This document shows, piece by piece, positions 10,246-35,000 of a stretch of DNA of 64,000 nucleotides. Both the position numbers and the translations under genes were made by a program. The notes beneath the pieces are model-generated. The model saw only the letters and a program-made list of their open reading frames with translations. It was not told the DNA's origin and ran no database searches. This DNA is from a virus (taxonomy: Duplodnaviria; Caudoviricetes): positions 1-64,000 of the IMG/VR virus record IMGVR_UViG_3300033120_000804; one strand, 5' to 3'. Numbering within the stretch: position 1 is the stretch's first letter; every line of letters starts with the position of its first letter.

Positions 10246-11084
10246 TGAGTATATTTAATGGTAAATATGTTAGTGTTTATGAAATAATAAATTCAGCATA
10301 TAGAGACTCGGGTATGTCTAATGAATTAAATATAGCAGATGCTATAGAATGGGCTGGAGAAGCTATTGAATTCATTGGAGGTATGAACTATTTTGAGGAA
10401 AAGGTAGAAGTACTTTTAGTAAATAATCATAAAGTTAAAATTCCTTGCTCTTTACATATTATTAATGGTATTAAAGCTAAGGTTGACAAAAATGCAACAG
10501 AAATTGAAGAATGTCTATTTGATATATCTTCTTTTTCTCCTATGATTTATAAATCTAGTATATATCATAAATATATAACTAATAATGATGTTACTAGTAC
10601 GCCTAATAACTTAGCTAATAATTTAACTAGCAAATTAACATACAATGTTAATGATAATTACATCTTTACTAATTTTGATAAAGGATTTATAGCCTTATCT
10701 TATAAAGGTATTGTAGTAGATGAAAATGGATTTCCTAAAATACCAGATGATGTTAAAGTTAAAAATGCAGTTAAATATCATTTACTTTGGAAATTAGCTT
10801 TTATTAAAATGTTAAGTGGCAAAATTAGTGGACAAGCCTACCAAATTATAGAGAGAGATAGAGATTGGTATATTGGAGGAGCACAAACTAGATCTGTAAT
10901 GCCTAATAATGATCAATTAGAAAGTATTAAAAATAACTGGATAAGATTAATACCTAAAATTAATCATCATTCAGACGGATTTAATAGTCTAAATATTCAA
11001 GAACAAAGAGAAGTTAAAAATAATATTGATAACAACTCTTTAAGAGGGCAGAGTAATATTAATATGTACACTTATAAAAGATAA
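10245..11084 (+). CDS. tail tubular/ring protein (P22 gp4-like)
   Basis: IEWAGEAIEFIG, DENGFPKIPD and WYIGGAQ motifs of the crAss tail tube protein. Confidence 0.7.
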   Translation: MSIFNGKYVSVYEIINSAYRDSGMSNELNIADAIEWAGEAIEFIGGMNYFEEKVEVLLVNNHKVKIPCSLHIINGIKAKVDKNATEIEECLFDISSFSPMIYKSSIYHKYITNNDVTSTPNNLANNLTSKLTYNVNDNYIFTNFDKGFIALSYKGIVVDENGFPKIPDDVKVKNAVKYHLLWKLAFIKMLSGKISGQAYQIIERDRDWYIGGAQTRSVMPNNDQLESIKNNWIRLIPKINHHSDGFNSLNIQEQREVKNNIDNNSLRGQSNINMYTYKR

Positions 11085-15413: not shown

Positions 15414-17753
15414 ATGGAAAAAAATAAGAAATCCAAAAATAAAAAACCATTAGTAGTAAACCCTTATTTCGTGTTAGGTTTACTTGATAATAATAATGCA
15501 TTAGGAGGTCCATTAGGCAATCCTAATGGCAATACTAATAGTCCTAAAACGCTTAATCCTAATTATAAAACTCAATTAGATGAGTATAATCAAGCTTTAA
15601 ATTTTAATAAAAATGCAGGAAGTAATAGAGGTGCTTTATTATCTGCTGATGAAATAAATTCTTTAGGAATTTCTAATACTAGTCCTTCTGGTTTAAAAGC
15701 TAAAAATATTTATAAATCAAATGTTGGTAATAACATGCATTTTATAGAATATGAAAAACCAGAAGAATATTTTATTACTCCAGCAGTAACACCTCAGGTT
15801 TCAAAACAAGGAGTATACAGAGACCCCTTCACTAATCAACCATTACCTATAGAAGAATATGGTTCACCTGGACAAGTAGATAAGCAATTAGCTCAAGGAG
15901 TAGATCCTAATAGTATAAAGTTATCTAATATTAAAGAACAACAAGATAAACAAGCTGTAATGGAGAATAATAAGAGATTATTACAATCTATGACAGAAGA
16001 ACAAAAAGCAGAAGCTAGAAGTTTAAAATTAACTGCTGGTGAATATTTAGCTAAAAAAAATAACAATGTAGTAGAACAATTTGCTTATGGTGGCAATATG
16101 TTAACTACTCCAGAAGAAGAAAGATTAGGAAATGCTTTACCTAAAAATGAATATTCTCATGTTAATGTAAATGGAGAAACTGGAAAAGGAGCATTATCTG
16201 GTGCTTTAACCGGAGCTGCTACAGGAGCTACTATGGGATCTGTAGTACCTGGTTGGGGAACAGCAGTTGGAGCTGTTGTTGGGGCAGTGGCTGGTGGTAT
16301 TAGTGGAGGCATTAAAAAGAAAAAGGCAGCTGAAGCACAACAAGCTATGGATCAACAAATATATGAGGAAAGTGCTAACCAAGGTTTGTACGCATTAGGA
16401 GGTCCATTAGATGTTGATTCTATTGTAGGAGAAAGACATGAAAATGGAGGTGTTAAAATGGGAGGTGCAGAAACAGAAGGAGGGGAAGCCAAGCTAGGAA
16501 ATTATATTTTCTCAGATAGACTTACTCCTAAAAACTCAAAAAGAACATTTGCACAAGTAGCTAAATCTATAGAATTTAAATATAGAGAAAGAGATAATGA
16601 TGGTCCTGCTTTAAGATCTAAAGAAAAAGAATTAGAAAGCCTAAAAGCAGAAAATGATATGGTTAGAAAAGAAACTCAATTGAAAGAACAACAATTGACT
16701 AATGCAATTAAAGCAGATGTATTTGCTTATGGAGGCTATTTTAAACAAGAAGGTGGTAATTTAATTATTGATGATTCTCATAATGATATTATAAAACAAT
16801 TAGCTAAAACTAAAGGTATTTCTTCTTCTGATTATAAAACTAGATTATTAGCACTTGGAGGAAACTTAAATGATGGAAATCCTCCATATGATGATAATAT
16901 GTTAGCTACACAAAATCAAGGAAATGAGTTTTTACCTATAGAAGATTACTTACAACAATCATTAACTACTTCTGGTAACTATACAGATCCTTCTCAATAT
17001 GAAGCTTATGCTCCTTCAGAAGAAAGTGATATAGAAAGAATGTATAATCTAGCTAATAGAAATAGAGGGTTAGAAAATTCTAATGCATTACCTACAGAAG
17101 AAGATTTATTTAGCCAAATTAATAATGATCCTACAACTAAGACTAATAAATTTGGTAACGAAGAAAAAGCATTGCTTATGTCATCATTGCCTGCTATTGA
17201 CAATTTAATTGCTTCAGGAGATAATAGTAAAACAACTCTTCAAAAGTTTAATCCTGAAATGTTAGACTTAGATTCTCAAAGACAAATGATAGGTAGAGAA
17301 ATTGCTAAAGCTAGGACTGTTGGAAGAGAAAATATTAGAAGTACAAGTAATTCATCAGGAGATTATTTAAGTAATATGGCAGCCCAAAATGCAGCTTTAA
17401 CTGATAGTTCTATGGATGCTTTATCACAAAGTTATTTAACTGAAGCCAATAGCAACACTCAAATTAGAAATCAAGCTAAAGCAGGTAATACTGAGATTGC
17501 AAATCAAGAAAAAATACTTAATGAACAAAATAAGGATTTAAGAAGATCATTACAAAATCAAGCAATTGCTAATGTATCTACCAATGCTCAAATGTATCTA
17601 AAAGATAAAAAACTGACATCAGAGAATAAAAAACAAAATGATAATATGGTTAAACTAATTAATAGTTTAGGGTATAATTATAAGTTTGAGGACGATAACG
17701 GAGCAATGTTATTAAAATTTAAAGAAGTGTTGGACAAAAATAAACCTCAATAA
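15414..17753 (+). CDS. virion cargo/ejection protein (crAss cargo protein 1-like)
   Basis: G.RHENGGV, AETEGGE, YIFSDRL and TFA motifs; Gly-zipper hydrophobic segment; repeated A[LY]GG. Confidence 0.7.
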   Translation: MEKNKKSKNKKPLVVNPYFVLGLLDNNNALGGPLGNPNGNTNSPKTLNPNYKTQLDEYNQALNFNKNAGSNRGALLSADEINSLGISNTSPSGLKAKNIYKSNVGNNMHFIEYEKPEEYFITPAVTPQVSKQGVYRDPFTNQPLPIEEYGSPGQVDKQLAQGVDPNSIKLSNIKEQQDKQAVMENNKRLLQSMTEEQKAEARSLKLTAGEYLAKKNNNVVEQFAYGGNMLTTPEEERLGNALPKNEYSHVNVNGETGKGALSGALTGAATGATMGSVVPGWGTAVGAVVGAVAGGISGGIKKKKAAEAQQAMDQQIYEESANQGLYALGGPLDVDSIVGERHENGGVKMGGAETEGGEAKLGNYIFSDRLTPKNSKRTFAQVAKSIEFKYRERDNDGPALRSKEKELESLKAENDMVRKETQLKEQQLTNAIKADVFAYGGYFKQEGGNLIIDDSHNDIIKQLAKTKGISSSDYKTRLLALGGNLNDGNPPYDDNMLATQNQGNEFLPIEDYLQQSLTTSGNYTDPSQYEAYAPSEESDIERMYNLANRNRGLENSNALPTEEDLFSQINNDPTTKTNKFGNEEKALLMSSLPAIDNLIASGDNSKTTLQKFNPEMLDLDSQRQMIGREIAKARTVGRENIRSTSNSSGDYLSNMAAQNAALTDSSMDALSQSYLTEANSNTQIRNQAKAGNTEIANQEKILNEQNKDLRRSLQNQAIANVSTNAQMYLKDKKLTSENKKQNDNMVKLINSLGYNYKFEDDNGAMLLKFKEVLDKNKPQ

Positions 17754-19726: not shown

Positions 19727-22700
19727 ATGGCTAAACAAAATAATGATCATGATAGAATTAAAGAATTATGGAATAGTTCTTTAGATGAGGTTAATAGTAC
19801 TCAGAACGTAGGTAGCACATCTGTAGTAGCCGGAAGTCTAAAAAAACATATAGATCATATAAAAGCAGAAACTGATTTAAATTGGTACCCAGAAGAAGGT
19901 TATGATGCTTTAAAAGATAAAATTAAACTAGCTGATTTTAATGAAGGTAAAAGAAAAGCAGAAGAGCAAGGTTTTTTTGGAGAGGCCGCTGGCTTTCTTG
20001 CACAAGGAACTAGTGAAATTGTATTAGGGACTTTAGAAGGAGTAGGTTATTTAGTTGATGATGTATTTAATGCAGTATCAGGGGGAGAAAAAGATTATTC
20101 TAATTGGTTTTCAGACGCAATGAGTGGTGCTAATGACTGGGTAAAAGAAAATGCACCTATATATCAAGATCCTTTAAATCAAGAAAGATCTACTTGGCAA
20201 AATATGATTCATGGTGATGGTTGGTGGGCACAAAATGGGGTTAGTTTAGCTAGTGCTGTATCATTAATGATTCCAGTTGCAGGTGCTGCTAGAGCTTTAG
20301 GATTTGTTGGTAAAGCAGGGAAAGTACTAGGTACTGCTGGTAAAGTTGGTAAATTAGGAAAAGTAGGTAAGATTATAACTACTCCTATTAATCTTGTAGA
20401 TGATGTAGGAAGAACTATGGGTTTTGAAACCCAATTAGGAAAACAAATAACTAATGGAATTAGCAAAAGTATTATTTCCAGACATTTAGAGAATAATATA
20501 GAAGCAGCAGATGTATTTAAACAAAAATATGATGAATATATTAATCTAGGTATGTCTCAAGAAGATGCTAAAAAACATGCAGGAGCAGCAGCTTCATTTA
20601 CATATAATGCAGGATGGGCTAATATATGGCAAGATGCTCTTCAATACACTTTATTAGCTAAAGGATTTAATATTTCTAAAGGAATTACAAGTACTAAATT
20701 AGCTAAAGCAACTGGTAGTAGTACAGCAAAAGCCCTGACTTACAATATGGGAAGAAAAGGATTAGAGTTTGCTACTGAAGGTATGGAAGAAGCTTATCAA
20801 TTTATTATTGCAGAAGAGGGAAAACATTTAGCAGATGTACAAGCAGGATTAGTAAACCCAGATGAATCTACTTTATCAGATAGATTAAAAAAATACTCAG
20901 AAGATTCTGAACTATGGACTTCTGCTTTTTTTGGTGGTTTAGGAGGAAATATATTTTCAACTGCTTTACCCGCTATTAATAAGTTAACAGATAAATTAGG
21001 ATCTGATGCAGAAAGTAAATTAGATGAAAATCAATCTCGTTTAAAAGAAATTTTAACTTGGAAAGAAAGAGAGTCTCAAGCTATCAGAGATTATTTTGAA
21101 TCTCAACAAATAGATGATGAAAAGGGATTTGAAATAGCTAAAACCAAAATGAGTTTCAATACTGGTGTTAGAGCTGCAATGGAAGGTAACTGGGCTATTA
21201 GAAAAGGACAATTAGAAGATCTTAAAAAAGCTACTCCTGAAGAAGTTGCACAAACTTTAAATATCCCAATTGAAGCTGTAGATGATTATATTGCTAATAT
21301 AGATAATCATATTAAAACTTCAGAAGAAGCTGCTAAATTATATGCTTCTAATGTAAATAAATATGGTGAATCCACTGCTTATCAAGTTAGTTACTTGCAG
21401 CATATGACTAATCATTATAATAATAAGATTCCAGAATTAGGAAAAGTTATTGAAGATGAAATTCAAAAAGTACCTGGAGTAAATAATCTAACTCCCCAAG
21501 GTAAACAAATGTTTAATAGCAGATTAACTACTTTAGCAGCTAAAAAAGTTATTGATTATAATAACAATTTAATTAATAAGAAAAAAGAATTATCAGAAAC
21601 AGATAAAGAATATTATAAAAAAAGAAATAATTATTTAGATAGTATTATTGAATCTAATAATCAAACTATTGAAGAAGCTAAGACATTAGGTGTATTATCT
21701 CCTAATGATAGAATTGCTTTAAGTTATTTAAATGGAGGGGTAACAGATGAATTAGTTAACGCAAGTATTGAAAAAGAGCTTGCAGAAATGTATGTAGATA
21801 AATGGTTAGAGGATATAGATAGTTTAACTTCTAAAGATGCTCAAAATAAAATTAAAGCAAAACAAGAAGAAGTTAGTAAAAAACAGCAGGATAAAATTAG
21901 AAAAGAAACTAATAAACAGAATGCTGAAGCAGCTAATCAAAAAGCTAATAAAATACCGGATTATAAGCCAACAGTTGATTTAGAAGAAGCTGAAATAGGT
22001 TCTCAAGAGCAAGAATCAAAACCAGTTGATTTCAAGGATTTACATAAACTTATTGAAGAAGGGCAAGTAAATACTAATCAATTAGATGATTCTGTATTAG
22101 AAGCCTATAGTAGTTGGAAAGAACAAAATATTAATATATCTGAAGATGTCATTGCTAATGAAGAAAATGTAACTTCTAATTTAAATACTATTGAAACACA
22201 AGTTTCAGATAATATAGAGGACTATATTAAAGGTTCTGATGATATATCTACAGTAACTCAAGTAAGTACCCCATTAGCTTATTTATCTGTTAATAATAGC
22301 AGAGCTACAGAAGAAGATAAAACTCCTGAAAATATAGCATTGTCTAATTTTTTAGAATCTGGCGAATCTATTAATGATATTGATATTGTATTTGAAATAG
22401 ATTTTGATTTCTTAAATAAGGAGAATCCAAAAGGTTGGAAAACTAAACCTATTGATACTATATTAAATAGTTTAAATAATAATAAACCATTAACTACAGA
22501 GCAGCTAGAGGTACTTCCTATTAAAGGAATGTTTTATAAAAATGATAAACCATTTATTTATAATGATATACATCTTAGAATGCATATTCATGAAGCTGAT
22601 TTCTTTAGAAGAATACCTAATGCTTCAGCTGAATTTCAAATAGAAAAATCATTACAACATAAACAATTAATTTTAGATGCTTATTACAATAAACAAAAAT

Positions 22701-24973
22701 TAAAATCAAGTTTAATTAGTAAATCAAATGGCACTATTAATAATGATAGCTCAGAAAATGCATTTAATAAAAATATATTATCTGATGTAATTAAGAAATC
22801 ATATGAAAATATGGAATTTCTTTATGGCGATACTTTAGGAAGTTATTTAAAATCTAATAAAAAACTATCAGAAGACTTTCAAACATTGTTTTCTTCTACT
22901 AAAGGTTCTGTTTATATCAAAGTTGAAACAGCTAATGGTAAAACATTTCCATTAAGATTAAAAAGTAGTAAAGTGAGTGAGTCAGAAGCTGAATTAATCT
23001 ATTCACTGTATATAACTATAATGAAAGACTTTAGTTATTTAAATAAACCAGTTAATACTAAACTAGAAAATGATATATCTCTTGGAGATACCATTAGGTC
23101 AAGTGATCAAGCTATTATAAAAGGCCTTAATAATTATTTAAATTTTGATAAGATTACATATAACCAATTATTAAATCACCTAATCTTTGAAGGTAAAACA
23201 ACTGCTAATAAAAAAGAATCTAGATTAATGCTAATGCCTTCTCAAGAAATAGAAGGTAAAAAAATACCACCTACTCTTGTATTTGGGGAAAATAGGTTAG
23301 CTTTAAAAGAATTATTATTAGATGACAATAAAACTAAATTTATTGGGAATTTAACTGCTAATAGAAATAGACAAATAGATATTAATTACTTAGGTGATAA
23401 TACTTATAAAGAATACATTGATGTAAATAAAATAGTTACTACTAATATTATTCCTTCTGATACAGGAGTTATATTTATTCAACCTGTAATTGAATATAAT
23501 GATAATTTAGTACCATTTAAAGAAGAAATTAATGAAAAGGAGGTATTTATTCCAAAAGAAAATTTAATACCTTCAGAAGAGCTAGATGAGGGTTCTGATT
23601 TATCTGCTTTGATTTTGAAAGCTTTAGAAAAAAATAAAGTAAATTCTTTAGGTTCAAAAGAGGAAAGTACTAATTCATTTTTAGACAATATAAATAACAT
23701 TGCAGAAGATGCTAAAGAAGATGGGGAAACTCCATTATTTAGTAAAATAAATAATTCTACTAAAATTACTTCTTTAACTGAAGATTTAGTAAATAAAATA
23801 ATAGAAGATCCAAATACTAAGTTATTAGATTTAAATAATCTAATAGAAAATTTAGTAGAAAAGGGTAAAATAAGATCTCGTAATAGTATTATAAGCAAAA
23901 CTGAAAGAAAAACAATAAACTTTTTAAATAAATTAGGAATTAGTGATTATACAAATGAGTATAACTTATCAGATAAAGATTTAAAAAAATATTATTTAGA
24001 TCTACTTGATAAGATAACTCCATTTATAAAAGATACTAAAATTTATTCATACAAAGATTCTAGAATTGGTTTAATTACTGGTGCAACTAAACAAGCTGGT
24101 TTTGCTACATATTCTAATAAAATATATTTAGGAGATATAGTAGGTTTAAATTTAAAAACTTTAGTACATGAATTAATGCATTCTGTTACCCAACATGCTT
24201 TAAATGAAAAAAGTAGTTTATATGATAGTAAATTTCATAATAACATTAAAGACCTTTTAAAAATAGCTAAAGAAAATATTAAAGAAAATTATTATGGTTT
24301 AAGTAATGAACACGAATTAATTGCAGAAGCTTTTTCAAATCCTGAATTTCAAGTAGCACTTAGTAAAGTAAAAACTGGTAAAAAGGGTAGTTCTTCTAAT
24401 ATATTTCTGGATATACTTAATGAAATATCTAAATTTTTCAAAAAAGTTTTTAAATTAGATATAAACTCTACATTATTGGAGGATATATTTGATGCAGTTG
24501 GAAATAAATTAGAAAATACTACTGATATAAGTACTAGTCAGCAAAATAGTAATGTTGAATTTTCGTTAATTAATTCTAAGAAAGAAATAGTAGATTTTGC
24601 TAAAGGTAAATCAATTAATTATCAAATTAATAGTGCAAATACTGAAATCTTAGTTCCTTATTCTAAATTTAATAAATCTATTGCTTATAATATTGCTAAA
24701 AAAATGGTTACTAAAATTAATAAAGAATATCCTGGAGCAGCTTCTTTAAATACTGCTTATAGTACTGGAGCAGCTGTTAATATACATCCTAAGCAACTCA
24801 AAGCAGATGAGGTAGTAAACAATCCATTTCAAAGAGATTTAAGTTATTATAAAGGAGATATAGCATTAATGGAGCAAGAAGAAGGATTTAATTTCACAAA
24901 ATATGAAATAACTCCTGAAGAATGGGTATCTTTGACAAAAGAGGAGAAAAGTAAAATTATTAAATGTAAATAA
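19727..24973 (+). CDS. giant ejection protein with membrane-like N-terminal region and zincin metallopeptidase motif
   Basis: Hydrophobic Gly/Ala segments and EG.EE..Q; HELMH (24167-24181) plus downstream ELIAEAFSNPEFQ. Confidence 0.7.
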   Translation: MAKQNNDHDRIKELWNSSLDEVNSTQNVGSTSVVAGSLKKHIDHIKAETDLNWYPEEGYDALKDKIKLADFNEGKRKAEEQGFFGEAAGFLAQGTSEIVLGTLEGVGYLVDDVFNAVSGGEKDYSNWFSDAMSGANDWVKENAPIYQDPLNQERSTWQNMIHGDGWWAQNGVSLASAVSLMIPVAGAARALGFVGKAGKVLGTAGKVGKLGKVGKIITTPINLVDDVGRTMGFETQLGKQITNGISKSIISRHLENNIEAADVFKQKYDEYINLGMSQEDAKKHAGAAASFTYNAGWANIWQDALQYTLLAKGFNISKGITSTKLAKATGSSTAKALTYNMGRKGLEFATEGMEEAYQFIIAEEGKHLADVQAGLVNPDESTLSDRLKKYSEDSELWTSAFFGGLGGNIFSTALPAINKLTDKLGSDAESKLDENQSRLKEILTWKERESQAIRDYFESQQIDDEKGFEIAKTKMSFNTGVRAAMEGNWAIRKGQLEDLKKATPEEVAQTLNIPIEAVDDYIANIDNHIKTSEEAAKLYASNVNKYGESTAYQVSYLQHMTNHYNNKIPELGKVIEDEIQKVPGVNNLTPQGKQMFNSRLTTLAAKKVIDYNNNLINKKKELSETDKEYYKKRNNYLDSIIESNNQTIEEAKTLGVLSPNDRIALSYLNGGVTDELVNASIEKELAEMYVDKWLEDIDSLTSKDAQNKIKAKQEEVSKKQQDKIRKETNKQNAEAANQKANKIPDYKPTVDLEEAEIGSQEQESKPVDFKDLHKLIEEGQVNTNQLDDSVLEAYSSWKEQNINISEDVIANEENVTSNLNTIETQVSDNIEDYIKGSDDISTVTQVSTPLAYLSVNNSRATEEDKTPENIALSNFLESGESINDIDIVFEIDFDFLNKENPKGWKTKPIDTILNSLNNNKPLTTEQLEVLPIKGMFYKNDKPFIYNDIHLRMHIHEADFFRRIPNASAEFQIEKSLQHKQLILDAYYNKQKLKSSLISKSNGTINNDSSENAFNKNILSDVIKKSYENMEFLYGDTLGSYLKSNKKLSEDFQTLFSSTKGSVYIKVETANGKTFPLRLKSSKVSESEAELIYSLYITIMKDFSYLNKPVNTKLENDISLGDTIRSSDQAIIKGLNNYLNFDKITYNQLLNHLIFEGKTTANKKESRLMLMPSQEIEGKKIPPTLVFGENRLALKELLLDDNKTKFIGNLTANRNRQIDINYLGDNTYKEYIDVNKIVTTNIIPSDTGVIFIQPVIEYNDNLVPFKEEINEKEVFIPKENLIPSEELDEGSDLSALILKALEKNKVNSLGSKEESTNSFLDNINNIAEDAKEDGETPLFSKINNSTKITSLTEDLVNKIIEDPNTKLLDLNNLIENLVEKGKIRSRNSIISKTERKTINFLNKLGISDYTNEYNLSDKDLKKYYLDLLDKITPFIKDTKIYSYKDSRIGLITGATKQAGFATYSNKIYLGDIVGLNLKTLVHELMHSVTQHALNEKSSLYDSKFHNNIKDLLKIAKENIKENYYGLSNEHELIAEAFSNPEFQVALSKVKTGKKGSSSNIFLDILNEISKFFKKVFKLDINSTLLEDIFDAVGNKLENTTDISTSQQNSNVEFSLINSKKEIVDFAKGKSINYQINSANTEILVPYSKFNKSIAYNIAKKMVTKINKEYPGAASLNTAYSTGAAVNIHPKQLKADEVVNNPFQRDLSYYKGDIALMEQEEGFNFTKYEITPEEWVSLTKEEKSKIIKCK

Positions 24974-27900
24974 TGGAAAATTGTATTAACCGCAGTCTGC
25001 CTGAGTTCTTACAGATTCAAAAAGAAACAGGATTAAATTCTACTATACTAGCAGCTAAAATATCTTTATGGCAAGATACTAATGGACTGGATAAATTTCC
25101 TACTATAGAAGAATTAAATCTACAGGAATTCTATGACAATAGTCTAAAGAGTCATCCAGAATTATCAGATATACAAACTAATGAAATAATATCTAATTTA
25201 TGTTTTATTGCTTTGTATGACATTACAGAACTAAAAAATATAGTAGATCAATTAGATTTAAGTAAAGTAGAGAAACAATTGGCAATGAGACTTAAATCAT
25301 TTTTAGCTGATACCAATCTGTCTGAAGAAATTAAACAGGAATATGTTCAGAGATTTCAATATATTTTAAATGATCAAGGTAAACTTCATAGTTTTTGGAA
25401 AAATAGAATATTTAGTTATATTGAGACTAATTTTAAAATCCAAAATCTAAGTTCTATTGATTATACAGATGAAGATTTATTAGAAGATAGTGATGCATCG
25501 GATGGTAGTAATGCTATTTTTGAAGCACAATCTCATGAAACATCTAGTTACTTAAAGGCTACTCCTAATATTAAATATATTATTGGAACTATTCCTGATA
25601 TAAAAGAGTATAAAGATGGTAAAGTAATATATAATAATGGAGATTTCTTAGGATTACCTCTATTAAAAGATCCTAAAACTGTTTGGAGTTCTGTATCTAA
25701 TTCAGTATATGAAATAGTACAACATAAAAATGAAGAAGGAGTATTACAAGATCCTTATAGTTTAATGATTAGTAAACTAAAAGCACAAATCAAATACAAA
25801 CCAGAATTAGGATTCTTAGCAGATAAAGTATCTAAAATGGACACTATAGTTAAAACTCAATTTGTCAATACATTCTTACAACAAAAAGGAAGATATATTG
25901 ATCATATCATTGCAGGGAATGCGGGTGCACCTATATCTAAAATTACTGATTCTAATACTGAAAGTAGAGATACTAATATATTAAATCAATGGAATTCATT
26001 ATTTATCAAAAAATATAGTATAGGAGATAAATATAATTCAGAAATACTATCTAAATTAAAAGATGCTATTAGGGATTATGATACTATATTTAAAGAAGAA
26101 ATTAAGGCAGGTAATATTACTAATAGGAGTTTTAGCAAATTAAATACTATTTTTAATAGTTTAGGAATTAATCTAAATCCAAATACTATTCCTTATATTT
26201 TAGAAACTAAATATAATAATATATCACAAGCTACGCTTCCTTTAGCTTTAAGAAATCTTACCTTAGATTTATATAATGCATTAACTCAATTAAAAAATTT
26301 AAATGCAGATACAGAAATCACATCTAAAACTAATTTACTATTAAATAATAAATCATTTTTTAAAGAAATACTAGCTAATTCTGAAGCTTATTTTACTAAA
26401 GTAGGTGGAGAGGATATGTTTAAAGGCCCAGAAGGTAATAAGACTTATCTAATGCAAAACCATTCTACAATGTCTATTAAAATGTCTGAGTGGAAAAATA
26501 ATGATTTTGAGTATTTAAATGACCTAAAACAAAATGATTATTCATCTAATTCTTATTGGTTAAATCAATTATTAGATAACAATAACTCATTAAGAAAAGA
26601 TTTTATTCTTACTCCTTATGGCAACTTTAGATATAATACTGAAGATAATAATACATTTGGAGATAAAGCCTCTAATCTAAAACCTATTGATTCTTATATA
26701 GATCAATTCAACAAACAATTAAATGGTTATTTTATTGGTCTAGCTGAAGCAGATAAAGGACAACAAACTTATATCAAAGGACCTAAACTAGTTGAAGGTG
26801 AAATAACTTATGATGCTACAACAGATAATATACATTTAAATAGAGATATAACAGATATTACTACTATTTTATCTGGTTATCTTTTAGGCGAATTAAGAAG
26901 AATGCGTACTGCTTGGGAAGCAATGTATGGAGAAAATAAATTAAAAGATGAAAAATTAACTTTATACTACCATTATGTAGAAGGCAAAGATGGAGTAAAG
27001 CTTCCTGGGAATGCATTTAATAGTTTTATATTTCCTAATATCAATTTAATTGAATTAGGTTTAAAAAATGAGGATACAGATATTCCTGGAGAAATACTAC
27101 TAGATAAATTAAATATTACTACTCTACTTAATAATTCATTAGTAACAGATTATATTAATGAAGTTATTATAAATAATATCAAAGCTAATTTACAAATAGC
27201 ATTAGATAATGAATTAATATCTAAAAGAGTAGAAACTTCTACTACTGGAACTACTATTACAAAATATACTAATAGATGGATTGATTCTAATTATTTAAAT
27301 AAATATAATTATTATTTAGATCCTTCTGTACAATCTTCAGCTATAGTATCATCTATTGCAGATTATACTATTAACTCTATTATAGGTAATATTGAACAAA
27401 CAATGTTATTTAATGGAGATCCTGCTTTATATAAAGTAAAATATGCTACAGAAGAAATAGAAGAAAAAGGTGTAAAAAAGAAAGTTCAAAAACAATGGAT
27501 TGAGCAAGATATATTTGCAGACTTTAAAAAACGTATACCTGCAATTGGAGCCAATGGTAAACTATTTAGAATATATAATGATGAAAATGGTATTCCAGTA
27601 GTCAGATCTCATTATACATCAGCTACTATTGCCAATATTAATGTTAGTTCTTCTGTATTTGGAAACCCAGATAAAAAAGGGGAGTTTAATGAAGATGTAA
27701 TCAAGAATATCGCTGAATATACCAATACTCCAATTGAAGAAGTTAAAACACTTTTAAAACCATATTTAAATATAAATCAAACTGATGCTCAAGCTTGGAT
27801 AACATTAGATGTTTATAAAGAGAGAATGTTAGGTTTAGGTAAATGGACAGAAGAACATGAAATTTCCTTTGATAAAATAAAAAAAGGAGAAACATTATCA

Positions 27901-29583
27901 TTTAAAGATAAATCTATTTTAGCACAACCATTAAAAACTGTACATGTAGAGTTAAAAAAGAATTCTCAGAATACAATGATAATGCATTATAATAAGCAGT
28001 CTGAAGCAGTATTACTTCCATTCTTAACCAAAGGTACAGAATTAGATAACCTTAGATTGGCTATGGAAAGCCAAAAAGTTGATCATATAATTGTACTAGA
28101 TGGTAAAAAAGTAGGTGCTTCAGGTATTACTAATATTCTGGACGAACAAGGAAAAATTAAACCTAGTTCTGATATTATATTTAATTCTACTAATTTATCT
28201 TATAGAGGTTTATTTCTACAACAAGATTTACCTCCTCACGGTATAGATAGTAGACTAGTTGGTAGCCAAGCTGTTAAAAATGTAATGAGTGTTGTATCTA
28301 AAGATGAAATAGGTCTTAAATTAGTAGATCAATACCATTCAGTAATATCTAAGTTATCTGATAGAGGTTTACTTAAAATTAAATCTGTATTAGGATATGA
28401 TCCAGTATTAAAATTTACTGAAGATTCTAATGGAAAGTCAAGATTTTTTGATACTCTTCATAAAGAATTCTATAATGACTTATCAGATAACTATTTAATT
28501 GGTTTAAAAAAGAAATATCCTATTGATGCATTACCATTAAGAAATAAGATCCAGAATAAACTACATGCTCTTATTACTAAATCGGCTGTTAAACTACAGC
28601 AATTAGGAGGAGCATTAATTCAAATATCAGATTTAGGATTAATAGGCGTTGAAGTAGATATGAATACTCCAGTTAAAGATGGTATTATTTGGTTTAAAAA
28701 TCCTACAGAAAAACTTAAAGCAATGAGTATTAATGAAAAAGGTGTTAAACCTGCTCAAATATTAATGCCTTATGCTAAAATGATGCAAGATCCTAGAATT
28801 AATCTTATTATTAAAAATAAATTTGGAGTAAATTCATATAAAGAATTAAGTGCTAATCAAATTAAAGAATTAATTTCATCTAAAGTATTAGAAGGATTAT
28901 CTTACCGTATTCCTAATCAAGGTCCTTCATCTAATGATGCTTTTGAAATAGTAGGTATATTACCCCCAGAAATGGGAGATAGTATTGTATCATTCTCTGA
29001 TATTACTACTAAAACTGGATCTGATTTTGATATTGATAAAAGTTTTATTATTCTACCTAATTATCATTTTGATGCAAAAGCTAATAAAATTAGATATGTA
29101 GAGTATGATCCTTTAAATGAAACCAAAGAAGGTTTAGAAAATAGACGTTTAGAGCTCATGAGAGAAATGCTAATGCGCCCTGAAGCATATTTATCAGTAA
29201 TGGCTCCATTAGATGATCCTTGGTTAGAAAATGTAGCTAAAGATTTATTTCCTGAATCACTAAATAACAATGATTTACAATTTTTCAATGGAGTAGAACA
29301 GTTAAGTAATAAGATATTATTTGATAATGCTAAATCATTAGTAGGTACTATTGCAAATCATATGAGTAACCATTCTTTATTTTTACATGAAGATATTGGA
29401 TTCAATGATTATTACTTAGGAAAAGGAATTAAAACAGGTGCTGTAGAAAAAATTGAAAATAATGATGTATCTTTGTCAGAAGATAAATGGGAATTAATTG
29501 TAAGTAAAGATGATTCAATGACAAAAGATACTTGGGAAAGTTTATCCAACAAAGAAAAAAATAAAATCTTAGAATGTTTATAA
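24973..29583 (+). CDS. virion RNA polymerase, catalytic (N-terminal) part
   Basis: NQTDAQ, YRIPNQ and GSDFDIDK (DFDID at 29023-29037) motifs of crAss-like two-barrel RNA polymerases. Confidence 0.9.
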   Translation: MENCINRSLPEFLQIQKETGLNSTILAAKISLWQDTNGLDKFPTIEELNLQEFYDNSLKSHPELSDIQTNEIISNLCFIALYDITELKNIVDQLDLSKVEKQLAMRLKSFLADTNLSEEIKQEYVQRFQYILNDQGKLHSFWKNRIFSYIETNFKIQNLSSIDYTDEDLLEDSDASDGSNAIFEAQSHETSSYLKATPNIKYIIGTIPDIKEYKDGKVIYNNGDFLGLPLLKDPKTVWSSVSNSVYEIVQHKNEEGVLQDPYSLMISKLKAQIKYKPELGFLADKVSKMDTIVKTQFVNTFLQQKGRYIDHIIAGNAGAPISKITDSNTESRDTNILNQWNSLFIKKYSIGDKYNSEILSKLKDAIRDYDTIFKEEIKAGNITNRSFSKLNTIFNSLGINLNPNTIPYILETKYNNISQATLPLALRNLTLDLYNALTQLKNLNADTEITSKTNLLLNNKSFFKEILANSEAYFTKVGGEDMFKGPEGNKTYLMQNHSTMSIKMSEWKNNDFEYLNDLKQNDYSSNSYWLNQLLDNNNSLRKDFILTPYGNFRYNTEDNNTFGDKASNLKPIDSYIDQFNKQLNGYFIGLAEADKGQQTYIKGPKLVEGEITYDATTDNIHLNRDITDITTILSGYLLGELRRMRTAWEAMYGENKLKDEKLTLYYHYVEGKDGVKLPGNAFNSFIFPNINLIELGLKNEDTDIPGEILLDKLNITTLLNNSLVTDYINEVIINNIKANLQIALDNELISKRVETSTTGTTITKYTNRWIDSNYLNKYNYYLDPSVQSSAIVSSIADYTINSIIGNIEQTMLFNGDPALYKVKYATEEIEEKGVKKKVQKQWIEQDIFADFKKRIPAIGANGKLFRIYNDENGIPVVRSHYTSATIANINVSSSVFGNPDKKGEFNEDVIKNIAEYTNTPIEEVKTLLKPYLNINQTDAQAWITLDVYKERMLGLGKWTEEHEISFDKIKKGETLSFKDKSILAQPLKTVHVELKKNSQNTMIMHYNKQSEAVLLPFLTKGTELDNLRLAMESQKVDHIIVLDGKKVGASGITNILDEQGKIKPSSDIIFNSTNLSYRGLFLQQDLPPHGIDSRLVGSQAVKNVMSVVSKDEIGLKLVDQYHSVISKLSDRGLLKIKSVLGYDPVLKFTEDSNGKSRFFDTLHKEFYNDLSDNYLIGLKKKYPIDALPLRNKIQNKLHALITKSAVKLQQLGGALIQISDLGLIGVEVDMNTPVKDGIIWFKNPTEKLKAMSINEKGVKPAQILMPYAKMMQDPRINLIIKNKFGVNSYKELSANQIKELISSKVLEGLSYRIPNQGPSSNDAFEIVGILPPEMGDSIVSFSDITTKTGSDFDIDKSFIILPNYHFDAKANKIRYVEYDPLNETKEGLENRRLELMREMLMRPEAYLSVMAPLDDPWLENVAKDLFPESLNNNDLQFFNGVEQLSNKILFDNAKSLVGTIANHMSNHSLFLHEDIGFNDYYLGKGIKTGAVEKIENNDVSLSEDKWELIVSKDDSMTKDTWESLSNKEKNKILECL

Positions 29584-29584
29584 T

Positions 29585-29938
29585 ATGAAAATACAAGAAA
29601 TCTTAACAATGCTATTTGAAATTGAAATAGTAGCTCATGTAGCACATTTACAAACTACATCTTATGCAAAACATATGGCTTTAGATCAATTATACAATGA
29701 TATTGTAGAACACAGAGATACACTTGCAGAAGCTTGGCAAGGAGAATATGGTATAGTATCTGGATATGGTGATTTAAGTTTTAAAGAAGGGACTGATATT
29801 GTAAAATATTTAGGAGAGTGTTGTAAATCATTAGATACATTTAAAAAAGAAGTAGATGAGTCTTACATTCAACAAATACTAGATAATGTAAGTGAACTTT
29901 TGTATAAAGTTAAATACAAACTTGTAAATCTTAAATAA
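29585..29938 (+). CDS. ferritin/Dps-like four-helix protein (DUF5856-like)
   Basis: H.AHLQT.SYA.H.AL..LY, D.LAE.WQG.YG and YKL..L motifs. Confidence 0.75.
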   Translation: MKIQEILTMLFEIEIVAHVAHLQTTSYAKHMALDQLYNDIVEHRDTLAEAWQGEYGIVSGYGDLSFKEGTDIVKYLGECCKSLDTFKKEVDESYIQQILDNVSELLYKVKYKLVNLK

Positions 29939-31923
29939 TGGCTTATTGTATTGATATAAATCATTTTAAAGTAAAAGAATTAGCAGAACAACTAAATTTA
30001 CCAAGAATAGTAACTGCTGCTAAAATAGCATTGTGGCAAGAAGAAAATAATAATTTTGATCTATTTCCTGAAATAGAAGATTTATCTACTACTAAAGTTA
30101 AAGAAATTAATCAAAATAATACTTTACTATCTAATAGATTTGACGAGTCTGGAAATAAAATAGAAAATACATTAGGTGCTTTCATGAATGCTATTGTAGA
30201 TGCTGCTAAAGATCCTTATATTTCTAGAGCTAATATTAATCAATTTACAGCTGGAACTGCTTTTATGTTAGCTAGAGCTGGAGTAGATAGAGAATGGATT
30301 GTATCATTTATTGGCCAACCCATACTTAAAGATTTATATTTAGAAACTCAAAAAGCAGAAAGTGAAGCATCTAGTGAAAAAAGAGATGATAAAGGAAAAA
30401 AATTAAAACCCTTAGATATAATAATTAAAAAATACAAAGGACAAGATTTTGTTAAGGAGCAATTAAAGAGTTATAAATTAAAAAAAGATAAATTAGGTAA
30501 TATTATATTATCTACAGAAGAACTAATATCTTCTATTAAAGAACCTGATTTAGATAATTCAGACTTTGTTAATAGACAACTTGAAGTTTTAAATCAGTTT
30601 ATTGAATGGCAAGGTAAATCAAGAGAATTAAATGATTTATTAAAATTAACTAAGGTAGATGTAGATGGCGCATTTAGAAATTTAAATAGAGTAAATTTAT
30701 ATTTAAAACTATATAATAATGTAGTAGGTAATAATAAATTTATTGGTATTGATAATATTCTAGGAGTTAATCCAGAGTCTAAAAATATGATTGCCACCTA
30801 TATTAAGAATGGGCCTAAAGCTGCTAGAGAAATGTATGGAAGTATGTTTTTAGAAGCAACTCCTGCATTTGATAACTTAACTGATCAAGTATTAAAATCA
30901 GCAGGTTACTTAGATCTAGGTATGACTAAGAAAAACGAAATGCTCTTAGATTGGATTAGTAATGAAGTCTATGCTTATACAATTGCTAATACAGATTACT
31001 TTAATATAGAACAAGATCAATTAAAAGAAATCTTTTTTGGTTCTAAAAGCTCTCTTGATTTAGGGGAAGAAATAATTAAATATAGAAAAGATAATCCTAA
31101 TATATTATTAGATTCTTTAAATATAGAAATATCAAGTAAGGATTTAACTAATGGAGAATTTCTTAAAACACCTTGCAAAATAACTTTAGATAATAATGAT
31201 CAAGTAAAACAATTACAAAATCAGTTTTATAAAGAATGGGAAAAATTATATTATGATAATCCTACACTTGGTAAGAAATTAGTACAGTACGCATTTTACT
31301 CATCTGGATTCTATTCTAAGAATAGTTTACAAGATCATATTCCTTTGAATATCCTAAATTCAACAGGTTATTTTGATGATTTTACAGATAGTAGAAAATT
31401 CTATTCCAAAAATCAATTTGCTTTAGATGCTTCATTAGATACTATTTATAAAAATCTATATTATATCAATGAGTTAGTACCTAAAATTAACCTAGCTATT
31501 ACAAGTGCAATAGCAGATGATAAAGGTAATGTATTTGATACAAATGATGGTTTTATATTAGCTGATTTAAATCCTAGTTATATTGCTGGATTAGATAGTA
31601 ATAATTCAGTTGTATGGAAAAGATTTTTAAAGACTACTGATAACTTATATCAATGGCAAGGTTATACTGAAGATGGATTGGGAGCTGTTTATTTAAAGGT
31701 AAATAAATTAGGTTTTAATAACTTAGGTAGATCACTTAAAGAATATAATGCAAATGACTCAATTATAACTGAAAATAATATAAGTTTACCAGAAGCTTTA
31801 ATTAAAGTAGCAAGTGGATTAAGTTCTATAAAATACCCAGTAACTAAGTTTACTGAAAAAGATATTGAAAATGTAGTACAAAGTGATATTACAGAAAGAT
31901 TAAATTATTGTAAAATAGTATAA
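29938..31923 (+). CDS. virion RNA polymerase, C-terminal part
   Basis: G.KI...L..F.NA.VDAAKDP.I...N.N..T and F..QP, a block that normally follows the catalytic region within the same chain. Confidence 0.75.
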   Translation: MAYCIDINHFKVKELAEQLNLPRIVTAAKIALWQEENNNFDLFPEIEDLSTTKVKEINQNNTLLSNRFDESGNKIENTLGAFMNAIVDAAKDPYISRANINQFTAGTAFMLARAGVDREWIVSFIGQPILKDLYLETQKAESEASSEKRDDKGKKLKPLDIIIKKYKGQDFVKEQLKSYKLKKDKLGNIILSTEELISSIKEPDLDNSDFVNRQLEVLNQFIEWQGKSRELNDLLKLTKVDVDGAFRNLNRVNLYLKLYNNVVGNNKFIGIDNILGVNPESKNMIATYIKNGPKAAREMYGSMFLEATPAFDNLTDQVLKSAGYLDLGMTKKNEMLLDWISNEVYAYTIANTDYFNIEQDQLKEIFFGSKSSLDLGEEIIKYRKDNPNILLDSLNIEISSKDLTNGEFLKTPCKITLDNNDQVKQLQNQFYKEWEKLYYDNPTLGKKLVQYAFYSSGFYSKNSLQDHIPLNILNSTGYFDDFTDSRKFYSKNQFALDASLDTIYKNLYYINELVPKINLAITSAIADDKGNVFDTNDGFILADLNPSYIAGLDSNNSVVWKRFLKTTDNLYQWQGYTEDGLGAVYLKVNKLGFNNLGRSLKEYNANDSIITENNISLPEALIKVASGLSSIKYPVTKFTEKDIENVVQSDITERLNYCKIV

Positions 31924-31925
31924 GA

Positions 31926-34900
31926 ATGTATATTTGTTTTGATGAAAATGATGAAGGTTGGCAAAAATTAGTACAATCTTTTGGAGGTGATGAAAAAAAA
32001 GCATTTGCAGCTTGGGAAGCAAATAACTATAACTATTCTGATGATATATATTCTAATATAGCTCAAGATGCAGTATTAGAAGAAGATGTAGCTGAAGAAC
32101 CTAAAGATAAATATTATAAAGAGAAACAAATTGTTCTAGATAAAGCAGAATCTATTCTAAAACATAAATTAAAGTCTTTAAAATATGCTGTAAATAAACA
32201 TGAACATTTAGATACTTTGGTAACTCAAATGAATGGAGTACTTCAGGATCTAGAAAACTATGAAACTGACTTTGCAATCATTAAATTTATCCAGGGTTCA
32301 GAAAGAATGATTAACTCATCTTTAAAATGGCTGGAGAAAATTGAAAATGACCCTTCTAAGCTCAATGCTAATACACTCAAAAGAATATACGAAAGTGTAT
32401 CTCAATTTGAGATTTTAAACACTCTCTCAGAAGACTTTTTTGAAGATCCTGAGCATAAAGAAGAATATAGAAAAGTATCTGATTTATTAAGTAAGATTAA
32501 TAATATTCATAATAGATATATTACTGAGGCTAGGGACTTCTTAGTAGACCATATTACTCCTGGTTTTCAAAAAGTAAAAGCATTTTATGAAGAAAAAGCA
32601 GAAAGAGAGTATAATGAATCCAAGTTAAAAGTAGATAAAGCAAGAGGACTTAATAAAGAAGATCTTAGAAAAGCTAAGCAGGAATATATTTATAGATATT
32701 TAGCAGCTAATAAAACAACTATTGATAAAGAAACTAAAGAGTATGTAGAAAACATGGTTGTTCAAATTGCTGATATTAGCTCTTTAATTAGATTTATTGA
32801 GAACCCAAGAGACATTAATCATGATATTATTGGAGTTGCAACGGAAGCTTTAGATTTATCTAATAGAGATGTCAGACAAAAAACTATTAATAAAACATAT
32901 GAAGGTGATAAATTAAACAAAGCTTTTATTGATTATATAGGTAAACAATCAGATCCTAAAAAACAATATGCAGAGTTATTTGCTACAGATGAAAAAGGAA
33001 ATATATTACCTATATTAGTTAATGAAGATTCATTTAATTGGAAATCATTTACAGAGAAGTATAAAGATACGCCAGTAATGGAATTACATACTTTTTTATA
33101 TAATTTATCTAAAGAAAAAACAAAATTAACCGGAACATATAAATCATTAGGATTCAAATTACCATCTATTAATAAAAGTAATTTAGAAAGATTTTACTCA
33201 AATGGTAGTCTTGATACATTAAAACAAGGATTTTTAGATCATTTTAGAATTACTGCACAAGATACTGATTATGGTCAAGTAGAAATAGATGAAGCTAATG
33301 ATAAAAAATTAGATATTAAAAGTACTATTAAAGTTAAAGCTAATGCTCAGGGGTTAGAAAGATCTGAAATTCCTCTATATTATAGATATAAAATAGATGA
33401 AAAAGATTTAAGTTATGATATTGTAAGTTCATTCTTAATGGATTATAATAATTCCTTGCAATTTAATGCTAGAACAGAGACAGGGTTATTTCTAGAAATG
33501 CTTAAAGATGTGGTAAATGAAGCTTCAGTAGAACAAAGAGTAACATTAACTAAAAAACTAAAAATAGATAGTTTAACTGGTAAAACAGTAACTACTACAG
33601 CAGAAACATCTAACGTAGCTAAAGCACTAGAATCTTTAATTAGACATAGAATTTATGGTATTTCAGTTGAAGGTGATCCTAAAACAGCTAAAATATTAAA
33701 TCAAATAAAAAATGCTACTTCATTTATTACATTAGGAGGTAACGTATTATCAGGAGCTGCCAATTATTTACAAGGAGAATCTGTAATGCTTATTGAAGCT
33801 ATTGGAAACAAAGACTCAAAATTCTCTATTAAAGATAGAGCTAAGGCTAGTTTAAAGTTTGATAAAGATATTGGTAATATAATGAAAGATATAGGAGAAA
33901 TAACTCCTACTAGTAAAACTAATAGATTAATTACTTACTTTGATGCATTATCTGATTTTGAAGTAAATGAAAATAAATTTATTAAAAATAATAAGTTTAA
34001 AAAAGTAATGGATTCTGGAGCAATGATGTTTGCTAATCAATTTGCAGAATATACAGTTCAAACTGTATTAATGTATAGTAGATTAAATAATATCAAAGCT
34101 TTAAATAGCAGTGGTAAATATTTAACTAAAGAATTTACAGAAACAGCTAATAGAGATGAAGCTATATCTATAGATGAAGCTATTGTAGGTTGGTCAGAAG
34201 AAAATAATCCTATATTTCATAAGTCTGTATCTAAAACAGATATTACTTCAGATTTAAGTGAAAAAAGTATGTTTAAAATAGAATCTGATATTAAAAGAAT
34301 TAATAGAGATTTATATGGTAACTATGATTCTTTAAATAAAAGTGAATTAGAAAGAAATGCTTTTGGGGCCCTATTAACTCAAATGAGAAAATGGATTGTA
34401 ACAGGTATTCAAAAAAGATATAGAGGTATTGGTAATGTAAAAACTAAAACTGAAGATCTAGATATTAAACAAAGAAGTTTTAATACTCAAACAGATCAAT
34501 TTGAAGAAGGTACTTATACTACATCAATAAAATTTCTATACAATTTAGTTAAAGAATGGAAAGCTTTAAGAATGAAAACAGTTCCTGAAAATTGGAATAA
34601 ATTAACTAATAATGAAAAAGCTAATATTAAGATGACTATGGTTGAAATAGGTATGGCGATATCTTTATGGGCATTAGCTACTGCTTTAAGATCTGGAGAT
34701 GATGATGATGAAGATAAACTATTATTAGCTTATTTATCTAGAAGATTATATTCTGAATTAATATCATTTGCAAACATTAATGAAGCCCTTAGAACATTTA
34801 GAAGCCCTATGATGGTAACTAATACTATGGAATCTATAGTAGATGTCATTACACAAGCTTCTACAGCTCCTACAGAAGAATATGAAACAGGTTTTAATAA

Positions 34901-35000
34901 AGGAGAAAATAAACTTAAACATAAATTAGTTAAATTGATTCCAGTTTGGAAACAATATGATAGAAACTTGGAACAATCTATGTTATTTTTAGAAAAATAA
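31926..35000 (+). CDS. giant ejection protein (last gene of the RNAP cluster)
   Basis: 1024 aa with LYGNY, G.L..QMRKW, EEGTY.T and a hydrophobic C-terminal segment. Confidence 0.65.
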   Translation: MYICFDENDEGWQKLVQSFGGDEKKAFAAWEANNYNYSDDIYSNIAQDAVLEEDVAEEPKDKYYKEKQIVLDKAESILKHKLKSLKYAVNKHEHLDTLVTQMNGVLQDLENYETDFAIIKFIQGSERMINSSLKWLEKIENDPSKLNANTLKRIYESVSQFEILNTLSEDFFEDPEHKEEYRKVSDLLSKINNIHNRYITEARDFLVDHITPGFQKVKAFYEEKAEREYNESKLKVDKARGLNKEDLRKAKQEYIYRYLAANKTTIDKETKEYVENMVVQIADISSLIRFIENPRDINHDIIGVATEALDLSNRDVRQKTINKTYEGDKLNKAFIDYIGKQSDPKKQYAELFATDEKGNILPILVNEDSFNWKSFTEKYKDTPVMELHTFLYNLSKEKTKLTGTYKSLGFKLPSINKSNLERFYSNGSLDTLKQGFLDHFRITAQDTDYGQVEIDEANDKKLDIKSTIKVKANAQGLERSEIPLYYRYKIDEKDLSYDIVSSFLMDYNNSLQFNARTETGLFLEMLKDVVNEASVEQRVTLTKKLKIDSLTGKTVTTTAETSNVAKALESLIRHRIYGISVEGDPKTAKILNQIKNATSFITLGGNVLSGAANYLQGESVMLIEAIGNKDSKFSIKDRAKASLKFDKDIGNIMKDIGEITPTSKTNRLITYFDALSDFEVNENKFIKNNKFKKVMDSGAMMFANQFAEYTVQTVLMYSRLNNIKALNSSGKYLTKEFTETANRDEAISIDEAIVGWSEENNPIFHKSVSKTDITSDLSEKSMFKIESDIKRINRDLYGNYDSLNKSELERNAFGALLTQMRKWIVTGIQKRYRGIGNVKTKTEDLDIKQRSFNTQTDQFEEGTYTTSIKFLYNLVKEWKALRMKTVPENWNKLTNNEKANIKMTMVEIGMAISLWALATALRSGDDDDEDKLLLAYLSRRLYSELISFANINEALRTFRSPMMVTNTMESIVDVITQASTAPTEEYETGFNKGENKLKHKLVKLIPVWKQYDRNLEQSMLFLEK

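Follow-up and report, generated by a model that had tools for sequence, protein, structure and literature searches.

The closest described precedent for a bond between consecutive phage ejection proteins comes from the cyanopodophage A4 (A-4L), in whose cryo-electron microscopy structure gp27 Cys1715 and gp26 Cys5 form a disulfide, with the C-terminal helix of gp27 placed in a cleft of gp26 (PMC12002296; PDB 9K2V, 9K3A). In the A-4L genome, these two residues are the only cysteines of the 1717- and 1114-amino acid (aa) proteins. Here, we analyzed a stretch of 64,000 nucleotides (nt) from the virus record IMGVR_UViG_3300033120_000804 (positions 1 to 64,000; hereafter, the window), in which four giant open reading frames (ORFs 19727, 24973, 29938 and 31926, named by their first positions) meet at three junctions, each with a cysteine near the C-terminus of the upstream protein and another near the N-terminus of the downstream one. 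An earlier note, made from the sequence alone, had proposed that matched end modules bearing these cysteines dock onto each other and join the four proteins head to tail. We find that the same placement of cysteines recurs at homologous loci from three Crassvirales families and that, at the second junction, it accompanies an insert that splits the gene of the virion RNA polymerase.

Like the window, A4 has consecutive giant ejection proteins with near-terminal cysteines (3 residues from the C-end of the first protein, residue 5 of the second) that are otherwise Cys-poor, and its geometry, a C-terminal helix of the first protein docked in the second and disulfide-locked inside the capsid, is the one that we propose here from sequence and models. 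A4 differs in having one link instead of a chain of three and in involving no RNA polymerase; its description contains neither portable module families nor a splitting cassette, and the bond was not generalized (PMC12002296). The homologous proteins are those of the Crassvirales themselves: gp67-gp66-gp65 of phi14:2 and gp47/gp50/gp49 of crAss001 occur in the same order, with a DFDxD polymerase in the center and the same terminal cysteines, and the window departs from both in its cassette-split polymerase and in a zincin motif located in the gp67-like protein. Homologues of these cargo proteins were detected in virions by mass spectrometry for phi14:2 (bioRxiv 10.1101/2020.03.07.982082) and crAss001 (PMC10172136). 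According to the phi14:2 preprint, which does not mention the cysteines, the three proteins are fused in some phages to a polyprotein that is 'likely cleaved' (bioRxiv 10.1101/2020.03.07.982082), and the crAss001 atlas describes disulfides in the tail and in gp57 and nothing on the termini of gp47, gp49 and gp50 (PMC10172136); the end modules appear in neither of the two. In N4-like phages, cysteine depletion of the ejected proteins (Schitoviridae gp50/gp71) was attributed to passage through the oxidizing periplasm (PMC11445570). The ejected giants of these phages, including the virion RNA polymerase, resemble those of the window in their strong depletion; the N4-like polymerase is a single polypeptide of ~3,500 aa with zero cysteines, whereas the window retains cysteines precisely at the inter-protein junctions.

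Two systems outside phage virions share part of the logic. Split inteins also involve a gene divided into two ORFs whose products are rejoined via terminal modules with cysteines; their cysteines, however, lie at the extein-intein boundaries and not at the extreme termini, and the modules of the window would stay in the mature proteins. The docking domains of modular polyketide synthases and the COM domains of non-ribosomal peptide synthetases are short, matched C- and N-terminal helical peptides that order separately translated giant subunits; they are dispensable where the genes are fused, are not Cys-locked and serve substrate hand-over. Their ordering logic is alike, but there is no homology, and the purpose proposed here is packaging and ejection instead. 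The earlier note knew of no description of a system of this kind, a statement that holds in part: a head-to-tail disulfide between ejection proteins has been solved in A4 (PMC12002296), and our literature search found no description of the terminal-Cys rule, the modules or the splitting cassette in Crassvirales. The bond of A4 and the docking logic of the synthases are thus known kinds, and the novelty lies in a rule that spans the order, in the two module families and in the junction cassette that splits a gene.

The four ORFs contain 8 cysteines in 4,969 residues, as poor in cysteine as the earlier note had described them, and the cysteine content of the ORFs outside the cargo block (1.4%) would predict ~89. 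Six of the eight sit no more than 4 residues from a junction-facing terminus, and the outer termini carry none. The sole cysteine of ORF 19727 is residue 1747 (of 1748); ORF 24973 has cysteines at 4, 77 and 1535 (of 1536), ORF 29938 at 4, 413 and 658 (of 661), and ORF 31926, the chain end, has a cysteine only at residue 4. If the 8 cysteines were placed at random, the probability that each of the six named 4-residue terminal windows held one would be ~7e-14. Two further cargo ORFs upstream of ORF 19727 have zero cysteines. No obvious candidate for a thioredoxin or sulfhydryl-oxidase gene was seen in the window by the CxxC motif alone, without a family search of all ORFs. The annotations of two gut crAss-like phages, p-crAssphage (L019, 18905-20172) and cr128_1 (L025, 4918-5163), include thioredoxin-like genes near the polymerase block, which might bear on the reduction of a cargo disulfide.

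The termini that the earlier note quoted are all present where it had placed them, and its two matched pairs stand up to alignment (Table 1). ORF 24973 and ORF 29938 match at their N-termini, beginning with residue 1 (18 of 49 positions identical, pairwise E 2e-5), and ORF 19727 and ORF 24973 match at their extreme C-terminal ends (9 of 20 identical, E 0.04). In general form, the N-module comprises about 50-60 aa, with an extended arm starting M-x-x-C followed by a helical hairpin, and the C-module forms a helical tail, about 22-48 aa long, that ends C-x(0-2). A local hidden Markov model (HMM) of the N-module matches residues 1-55 of ORF 24973 (E 3e-27), and the C-module of junction 1 belongs to the C-module alignment A6, in which the cysteine is the only invariant column. 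The two N-module copies are also in register at the DNA level (spacing 4965-4968 nt, identity 70-85%), and junctions 1 and 2 have in common an overlapping stop/start and similar surrounding DNA. The third pair, joining the end of ORF 29938 to the start of ORF 31926, shows no similarity that BLAST can see; what stood of this claim is that both cysteines are conserved. One detail of the earlier description was wrong, in that ORF 24973 does not directly adjoin ORF 29938: a DUF5856 gene encoding 117 aa intervenes.

The AlphaFold2 model of the N-module (pLDDT 80) opens with an extended arm of residues 1-9, in which Cys4 lies, and continues in helices 10-19, 23-37 and 46-49; that of the junction 2 C-module (pLDDT 77.5) consists of three short helices, the last of which reaches the cysteine. 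Foldseek found nothing in the PDB that resembled the N-module model at E 0.001 or better. Docking of a C-module on an N-module was modeled for the junction 2 pair only and passed weakly, with an ipSAE of 0.42 against 0.02 for the best control, 100% agreement of contacts among three runs and a partner pLDDT of at least 69. When the complex tool was calibrated, 58 of 80 solved complexes passed the mark, as did 2 of 110 mismatched pairs; with scores of 0.60 or below, only 7 of those 80 passed, and both of the passing mismatches fell in this range.

Table 1. Positions of the cargo genes, end modules and insert in the window
Feature	Position	Strand	Description
C-module, junction 1	24908..24970	+	Helical tail ending C-x; Cys codon 24965-24967
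N-module, junction 1	24973..25116	+	M-x-x-C arm and helical hairpin; Cys codon 24982-24984
C-module, junction 2	29437..29583	+	48 aa and stop; Cys codon 29575-29577; conserved in split partners P0013, P0018, P0019
N-module, junction 2	29938..30117	+	60 aa; Cys codon 29947-29949; conserved in P0003, P0004, P0005, P0007
C-terminal Cys658 of ORF 29938 (junction 3)	codon 31909-31911	+	Invariant in 9 homologues
Second-flavour N-terminal module, ORF 31926 (junction 3)	~31926-32030	+	Cys codon 31935-31937
Polymerase-splitting insert	29437..30117	+	~680 bp: C-module, TAA, DUF5856 gene, ATG, N-module
gp67-like cargo protein	19727..24973	+	1748 aa; homology to phi14:2 gp67 and crAss001 gp47
Virion RNA polymerase, N-terminal fragment	24973..29583	+	1536 aa; aligns with phi14:2 gp66 222-1374, E 1e-89
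Virion RNA polymerase, C-terminal fragment	29938..31923	+	661 aa; aligns with phi14:2 gp66 1574-2099, E 9e-35
gp65-like cargo protein	31926..35000	+	1024 aa; homology to phi14:2 gp65 (E 2e-81) and gp49
DUF5856/phrog_858 Dps-like passenger gene	29585..29938	+	117 aa; PF19174 E 8e-21, phrog_858 E 2e-22

We compared the loci of phi14:2, crAss001, IAS virus, p-crAssphage, crAss002, cr1_1, cr4_1, cr107_1, cr116_1, cr118_1, cr128_1 and cr271_1, which span Steigviridae, Intestiviridae and Suoliviridae, together with 23 environmental loci. A terminal-Cys rule holds in all of them, with the apparent exceptions explained technically, and the cysteines are thus conserved in homologues across three families, a point on which the earlier note had staked its proposal. 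First, the gp67-like proteins with a complete 3' end have a cysteine within 4 residues of the C-end (11/11) and none at the N-end. Second, every separate polymerase has both a cysteine at residue 3-6 and one that lies 10 residues or less from the C-end. Third, the gp65-like proteins have a cysteine in the first 8 residues (31/31) and none near the C-end. Many of these cargo proteins lack any other cysteine, as in a 2,667-aa polymerase with cysteines only at 5 and 2664. At last, fusion removes the cysteines at the fused junction: the C-terminal cysteine alone remains in ten fused gp67+gp66 proteins (3,450-5,060 aa) and the N-terminal one alone in fused gp66+gp65 proteins, and the local N-module HMM detects no internal N-module in fused proteins. 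In crAss001, IAS, cr116_1 and cr128_1, the C-terminal cysteine persists in the gp47-like protein although its gene is on the opposite strand, which argues that the constraint acts on the protein and not on the DNA of the junction.

The apparent exceptions are crAss002, with a likely mis-set start; IAS, with ambiguous bases; L007, a frameshifted contig; and cr116_1, whose polymerase is interrupted by a LAGLIDADG-like ORF. In crAss002 (L020, NC_055828.1; 4229-16966), the annotated start of gp33 is probably 32 codons too early, and the M-S-C at residues 33-35 agrees with the sister phage cr107_1 and with the general rule. In L007, the polymerase is broken by an overlap/frameshift and the gp65-like gene by an in-frame stop (7703-7709 and 13871-13876), probably because the contig is misassembled or the genome defective. 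The late and cargo genes of cr4_1 (L034, NC_055893.1) are full of in-frame stops under table 11 (38 in gp26); we read these as TAG=Q without a codon check, consistent with the stop-codon recoding of some crAss-like phages, and the terminal-Cys rule still holds.

The N-module is widespread and strictly terminal. Its profile (53 positions) matched 532 clusters at E 1e-3 or better among 1.84 billion representatives, and among the 150 matches listed, all start at about residue 1 except one with a likely mis-set start. The cysteine is at position 3-6 in 143 of the 144 examined and is the only invariant column (alignment A5). Where the N-module sits on polymerase-like bodies a C-terminal cysteine is present too, and where it sits on gp65-like bodies 25 of 26 have none; its occurrence on both kinds of body shows that the module is portable. 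Both small modules are uncatalogued (no Pfam match), the PDB sequence search with the N-module profile gave no meaningful match, and tblastn of the 60-aa N-module against phages gave none. A 1603-aa protein (P0017) has an N-module 67% identical to that of ORF 24973, with Cys4 as its sole cysteine, on an unrelated remainder, which suggests module exchange between different cargo bodies.

The two module types also keep each other's company, as the earlier note had expected. Among 54 IMG/VR loci that encode the N-module, some of them near-duplicates, 52 include upstream DNA, and in 52/52 the preceding gene ends in a C-module, a conserved acidic helix containing Trp/Phe followed by a cysteine within 4 residues of the end; this count skips only the DUF5856 gene, in 3 loci. 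In L089 (5586-5993) and likewise in L090, a 126-aa protein that bears a cysteine as residue 3 and closes with a C-module and its terminal cysteine lies between a Cys-ending polymerase and an N-module gp65-like gene, and from its sequence looks like a small chain link or adaptor.

Taken together, the conservation of the cysteines, the contrast between split and fused junctions and the co-occurrence in 52 of 52 loci support junction-specific, paired modules. We propose, at a probability of roughly 0.6, that the cargo proteins are tethered head to tail. The C-terminal helix of one protein would dock on the N-module of the next, placing two cysteines side by side, and these would form an intermolecular disulfide after the particle leaves the reducing cytoplasm. 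Separately translated proteins would thereby become one linear pseudo-polyprotein, co-packaged in fixed order and 1:1 stoichiometry. With the links placed at the extreme protein ends, threading of the chain through the tail would still be possible, and the chain would be released by reduction in the cytoplasm of the next host. The polymerase halves would likewise stay tethered because the junction copy that splits them brings its own link. The ordered packaging, sequential ejection and refolding named in the earlier note are roles that we infer for such a chain.

Alternatively, the modules may act independently, as packaging or portal-binding signals, as membrane or redox sensors after ejection or as sites of other modification, without any protein-protein link. 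We regard this as unlikely. A portable tag on different bodies is what a targeting signal would look like, and the contact between the modules is a predicted one; however, independent signals do not account for C- and N-terminal cysteines that are gained and lost together with fission and fusion, for the C-module that precedes the N-module at all 52 loci, for the adaptor with cysteines at both ends, or for the finding that the N-end of the first protein and the C-end of the last are never Cys-bearing.

We give a small chance to a second alternative that keeps the logic of the chain and changes its lock: the terminal cysteines and neighboring side chains would bind a shared metal, in the style of a zinc hook, or another cofactor. 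Paired gain and loss of cysteines fits any bridging chemistry, a metal site could form in the reducing cytoplasm, and in the consensus a His often precedes the N-module cysteine and a Glu the C-module cysteine. These residues are not conserved, however (the N-modules of the window have Asn and Tyr before the cysteine), and each side offers one invariant ligand only, the cysteine being the sole invariant column in both A5 and A6; a zinc site is therefore possible but unsupported, because there is no second conserved ligand. Moreover, the solved case of A4 is a disulfide.

The tethering reading also bears on the split polymerase. As the earlier note had recognized, the RNA polymerase is in two pieces, since ORFs 24973 and 29938 align with separate parts of phi14:2 gp66. 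An unsplit polymerase, P0012, is 89% and 87% identical to the two fragments; its residues 1-1476 align with residues 1-1488 of ORF 24973 and its residues 1479-2078 with residues 61-661 of ORF 29938, and it lacks both junction cysteines and both modules. The split of the window is therefore a discrete insert, at about the boundaries listed in Table 1. The same contrast is seen between P0005 (split) and P0006 (unsplit, 70% identical), and P0009 is split at another site with an N-end that again bears a cysteine. In a tree of 34 rows built on the C-part of the polymerase, the five split forms do not group together: each has an unsplit form as its sister, and the starred branches force at least four changes. 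Hosts whose polymerase bodies share 32-56% identity have cassette N-modules that share 53-69%. From these sequences, the scatter fits either repeated transfer or repeated precise loss. The one metagenome scan returned unsplit forms only.

The origin of the insert is suggested by the gene that it contains. DUF5856 homologues 45-48% identical to that of the window lie between C-module and N-module genes in L038 (5622-5978), L047 (5636-6001) and L056 (5630-5998), at ordinary junctions and not at the polymerase split site, so the insert of the window looks like a junction copy. We therefore propose that the split arose through insertion of a copied junction consisting of a C-module, stop, DUF5856, start and N-module, an origin that these alignments would fit. 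The recurrence of the Dps/ferritin-like DUF5856 gene exactly between C- and N-module genes in four divergent phages may reflect conserved synteny, targeted insertion or a functional link, e.g. as a redox or assembly factor. A more tentative extension, for which we would give clearly less than even odds, is that the C-module/N-module pair is a portable, self-sufficient tethering unit: an in-frame junction copy would split a giant gene and tie the halves by a docked, disulfide-locked joint, a non-splicing counterpart of a split intein. If so, crAss-like phages could break up, reshuffle and load passenger genes into the injected protein chain, and the scatter of the cassette among close relatives would be explained.

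Two other origins of the split were considered. A true split intein is rejected: the modules have only 48 and 60 aa, with the cysteine 2 residues from the C-end or at residue 4 and no terminal Asn plus nucleophile, and no Hint domain was matched by Pfam at a threshold of E 0.01. An origin by an intron or a free-standing homing endonuclease does not fit an insert that holds only DUF5856/phrog_858 by Pfam and PHROGs, without an RNA-family scan of the insert. In the split C-fragment P0003 (818 aa), an extra segment of ~150 aa with no Pfam match directly follows the N-module (residues ~50-215) and may be a passenger domain at the cassette site. In cr116_1 (L024, NC_055882.1; 4915-15780), the polymerase ORF stops at the DFD motif and is followed by a 215-aa ORF and then by the polymerase remainder; the 215-aa ORF has a LAGLIDADG-like motif, recognized by eye with no family scan, and this intron- or intein-type interruption is unlike the split of the window.

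The junction 2 cassette could also be mainly selfish or neutral, a DUF5856-carrying junction copy spread by recombination whose modules would let the phage tolerate the split without contributing to ordered ejection. This we find improbable as a full account. It would accommodate the scatter on the polymerase tree, the N-modules that are more alike than the bodies of their hosts and the return of DUF5856 to the same slot in other phages, but the insert contains no nuclease or integrase (Pfam/PHROGs), and the order-wide rule at ordinary junctions would be left unexplained; this account is in any case compatible with the tether and not opposed to it. Lastly, a by-product of nucleotide-level constraint at overlapping stop/starts (translational coupling) or a relic of polyprotein cleavage sites, suggested by the overlaps shared by junctions 1 and 2 and by the 'likely cleaved' polyproteins of some relatives (bioRxiv 10.1101/2020.03.07.982082), is largely refuted and very improbable, given that non-adjacent opposite-strand genes keep the cysteine, that its distance from the terminus varies from 1 to 10 residues and that fused forms lack it at the former junction.

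Several points weigh against the disulfide-locked tether itself. Gut phages have more internal cysteines (9 in the IAS polymerase ORF and 7 in p-crAssphage gp44), and the C-terminal cysteine of crAss001 gp50 is 10 residues from the end. The predicted complex passes weakly, and junctions 1 and 2 of the window carry paralogous modules (37% and 33% identity), so specificity of order is not guaranteed. The host cytoplasm is reducing during assembly; the disulfide would therefore form only late, and the modules alone would have to hold the chain until then. A4 gp26/gp27 and the crAss cargo proteins show no sequence similarity (phmmer, no match at E <10; best BLASTP E 0.23), and we thus reject homology between them and take the A4 precedent as an analogy. 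Neither our analysis nor the papers cited here yielded a bond or binding in a crAss-like virion.

The junction-only cysteines with their matched modules nevertheless turn the cargo into a hypothesis that can be tested at the bench, namely that of a disulfide-linked pseudo-polyprotein. If true, it would explain why fused, separate and split gene layouts interchange in evolution, why cysteine has otherwise been lost from the ejected proteins, and how the order and stoichiometry of the cargo are set. If the modules bind, they could also serve as orthogonal protein-tethering tags.

The identity of the block is indicated by homology and gene order. The four giant ORFs lie downstream of the genes for the Crassvirus muzzle protein (crAss_MUZ by Pfam in ORF 11084-15343, E 2e-151) and cargo protein 1 (crAss_CARG1 domain by Pfam in ORF 15414-17753), and by these markers the source of the window is a crAss-like phage. 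BLASTP matches to phi14:2 proteins (E 1e-15 for the gp67-like ORF; the others in Table 1) identify the four ORFs as the Crassvirales virion RNA-polymerase cargo block. The catalytic motif DFDID, of the DFDxD type, is at 29023-29037 (residues 1351-1355 of ORF 24973), in the central protein. Neither the four giant ORFs nor ten other N-module proteins were assigned to a family by Pfam or PHROGs, a PDB sequence search with ORF 31926 found nothing meaningful, and neither megablast of the region against phages nor a one-protein scan of viral contigs gave matches. The zincin-type motif HELMH (24167-24181) sits in the gp67-like protein, and the region of ORF 19727 that bears it matches residues 243-333 of phi14:2 gp65; judged from this match, the protease domain has changed places within the chain from phage to phage.

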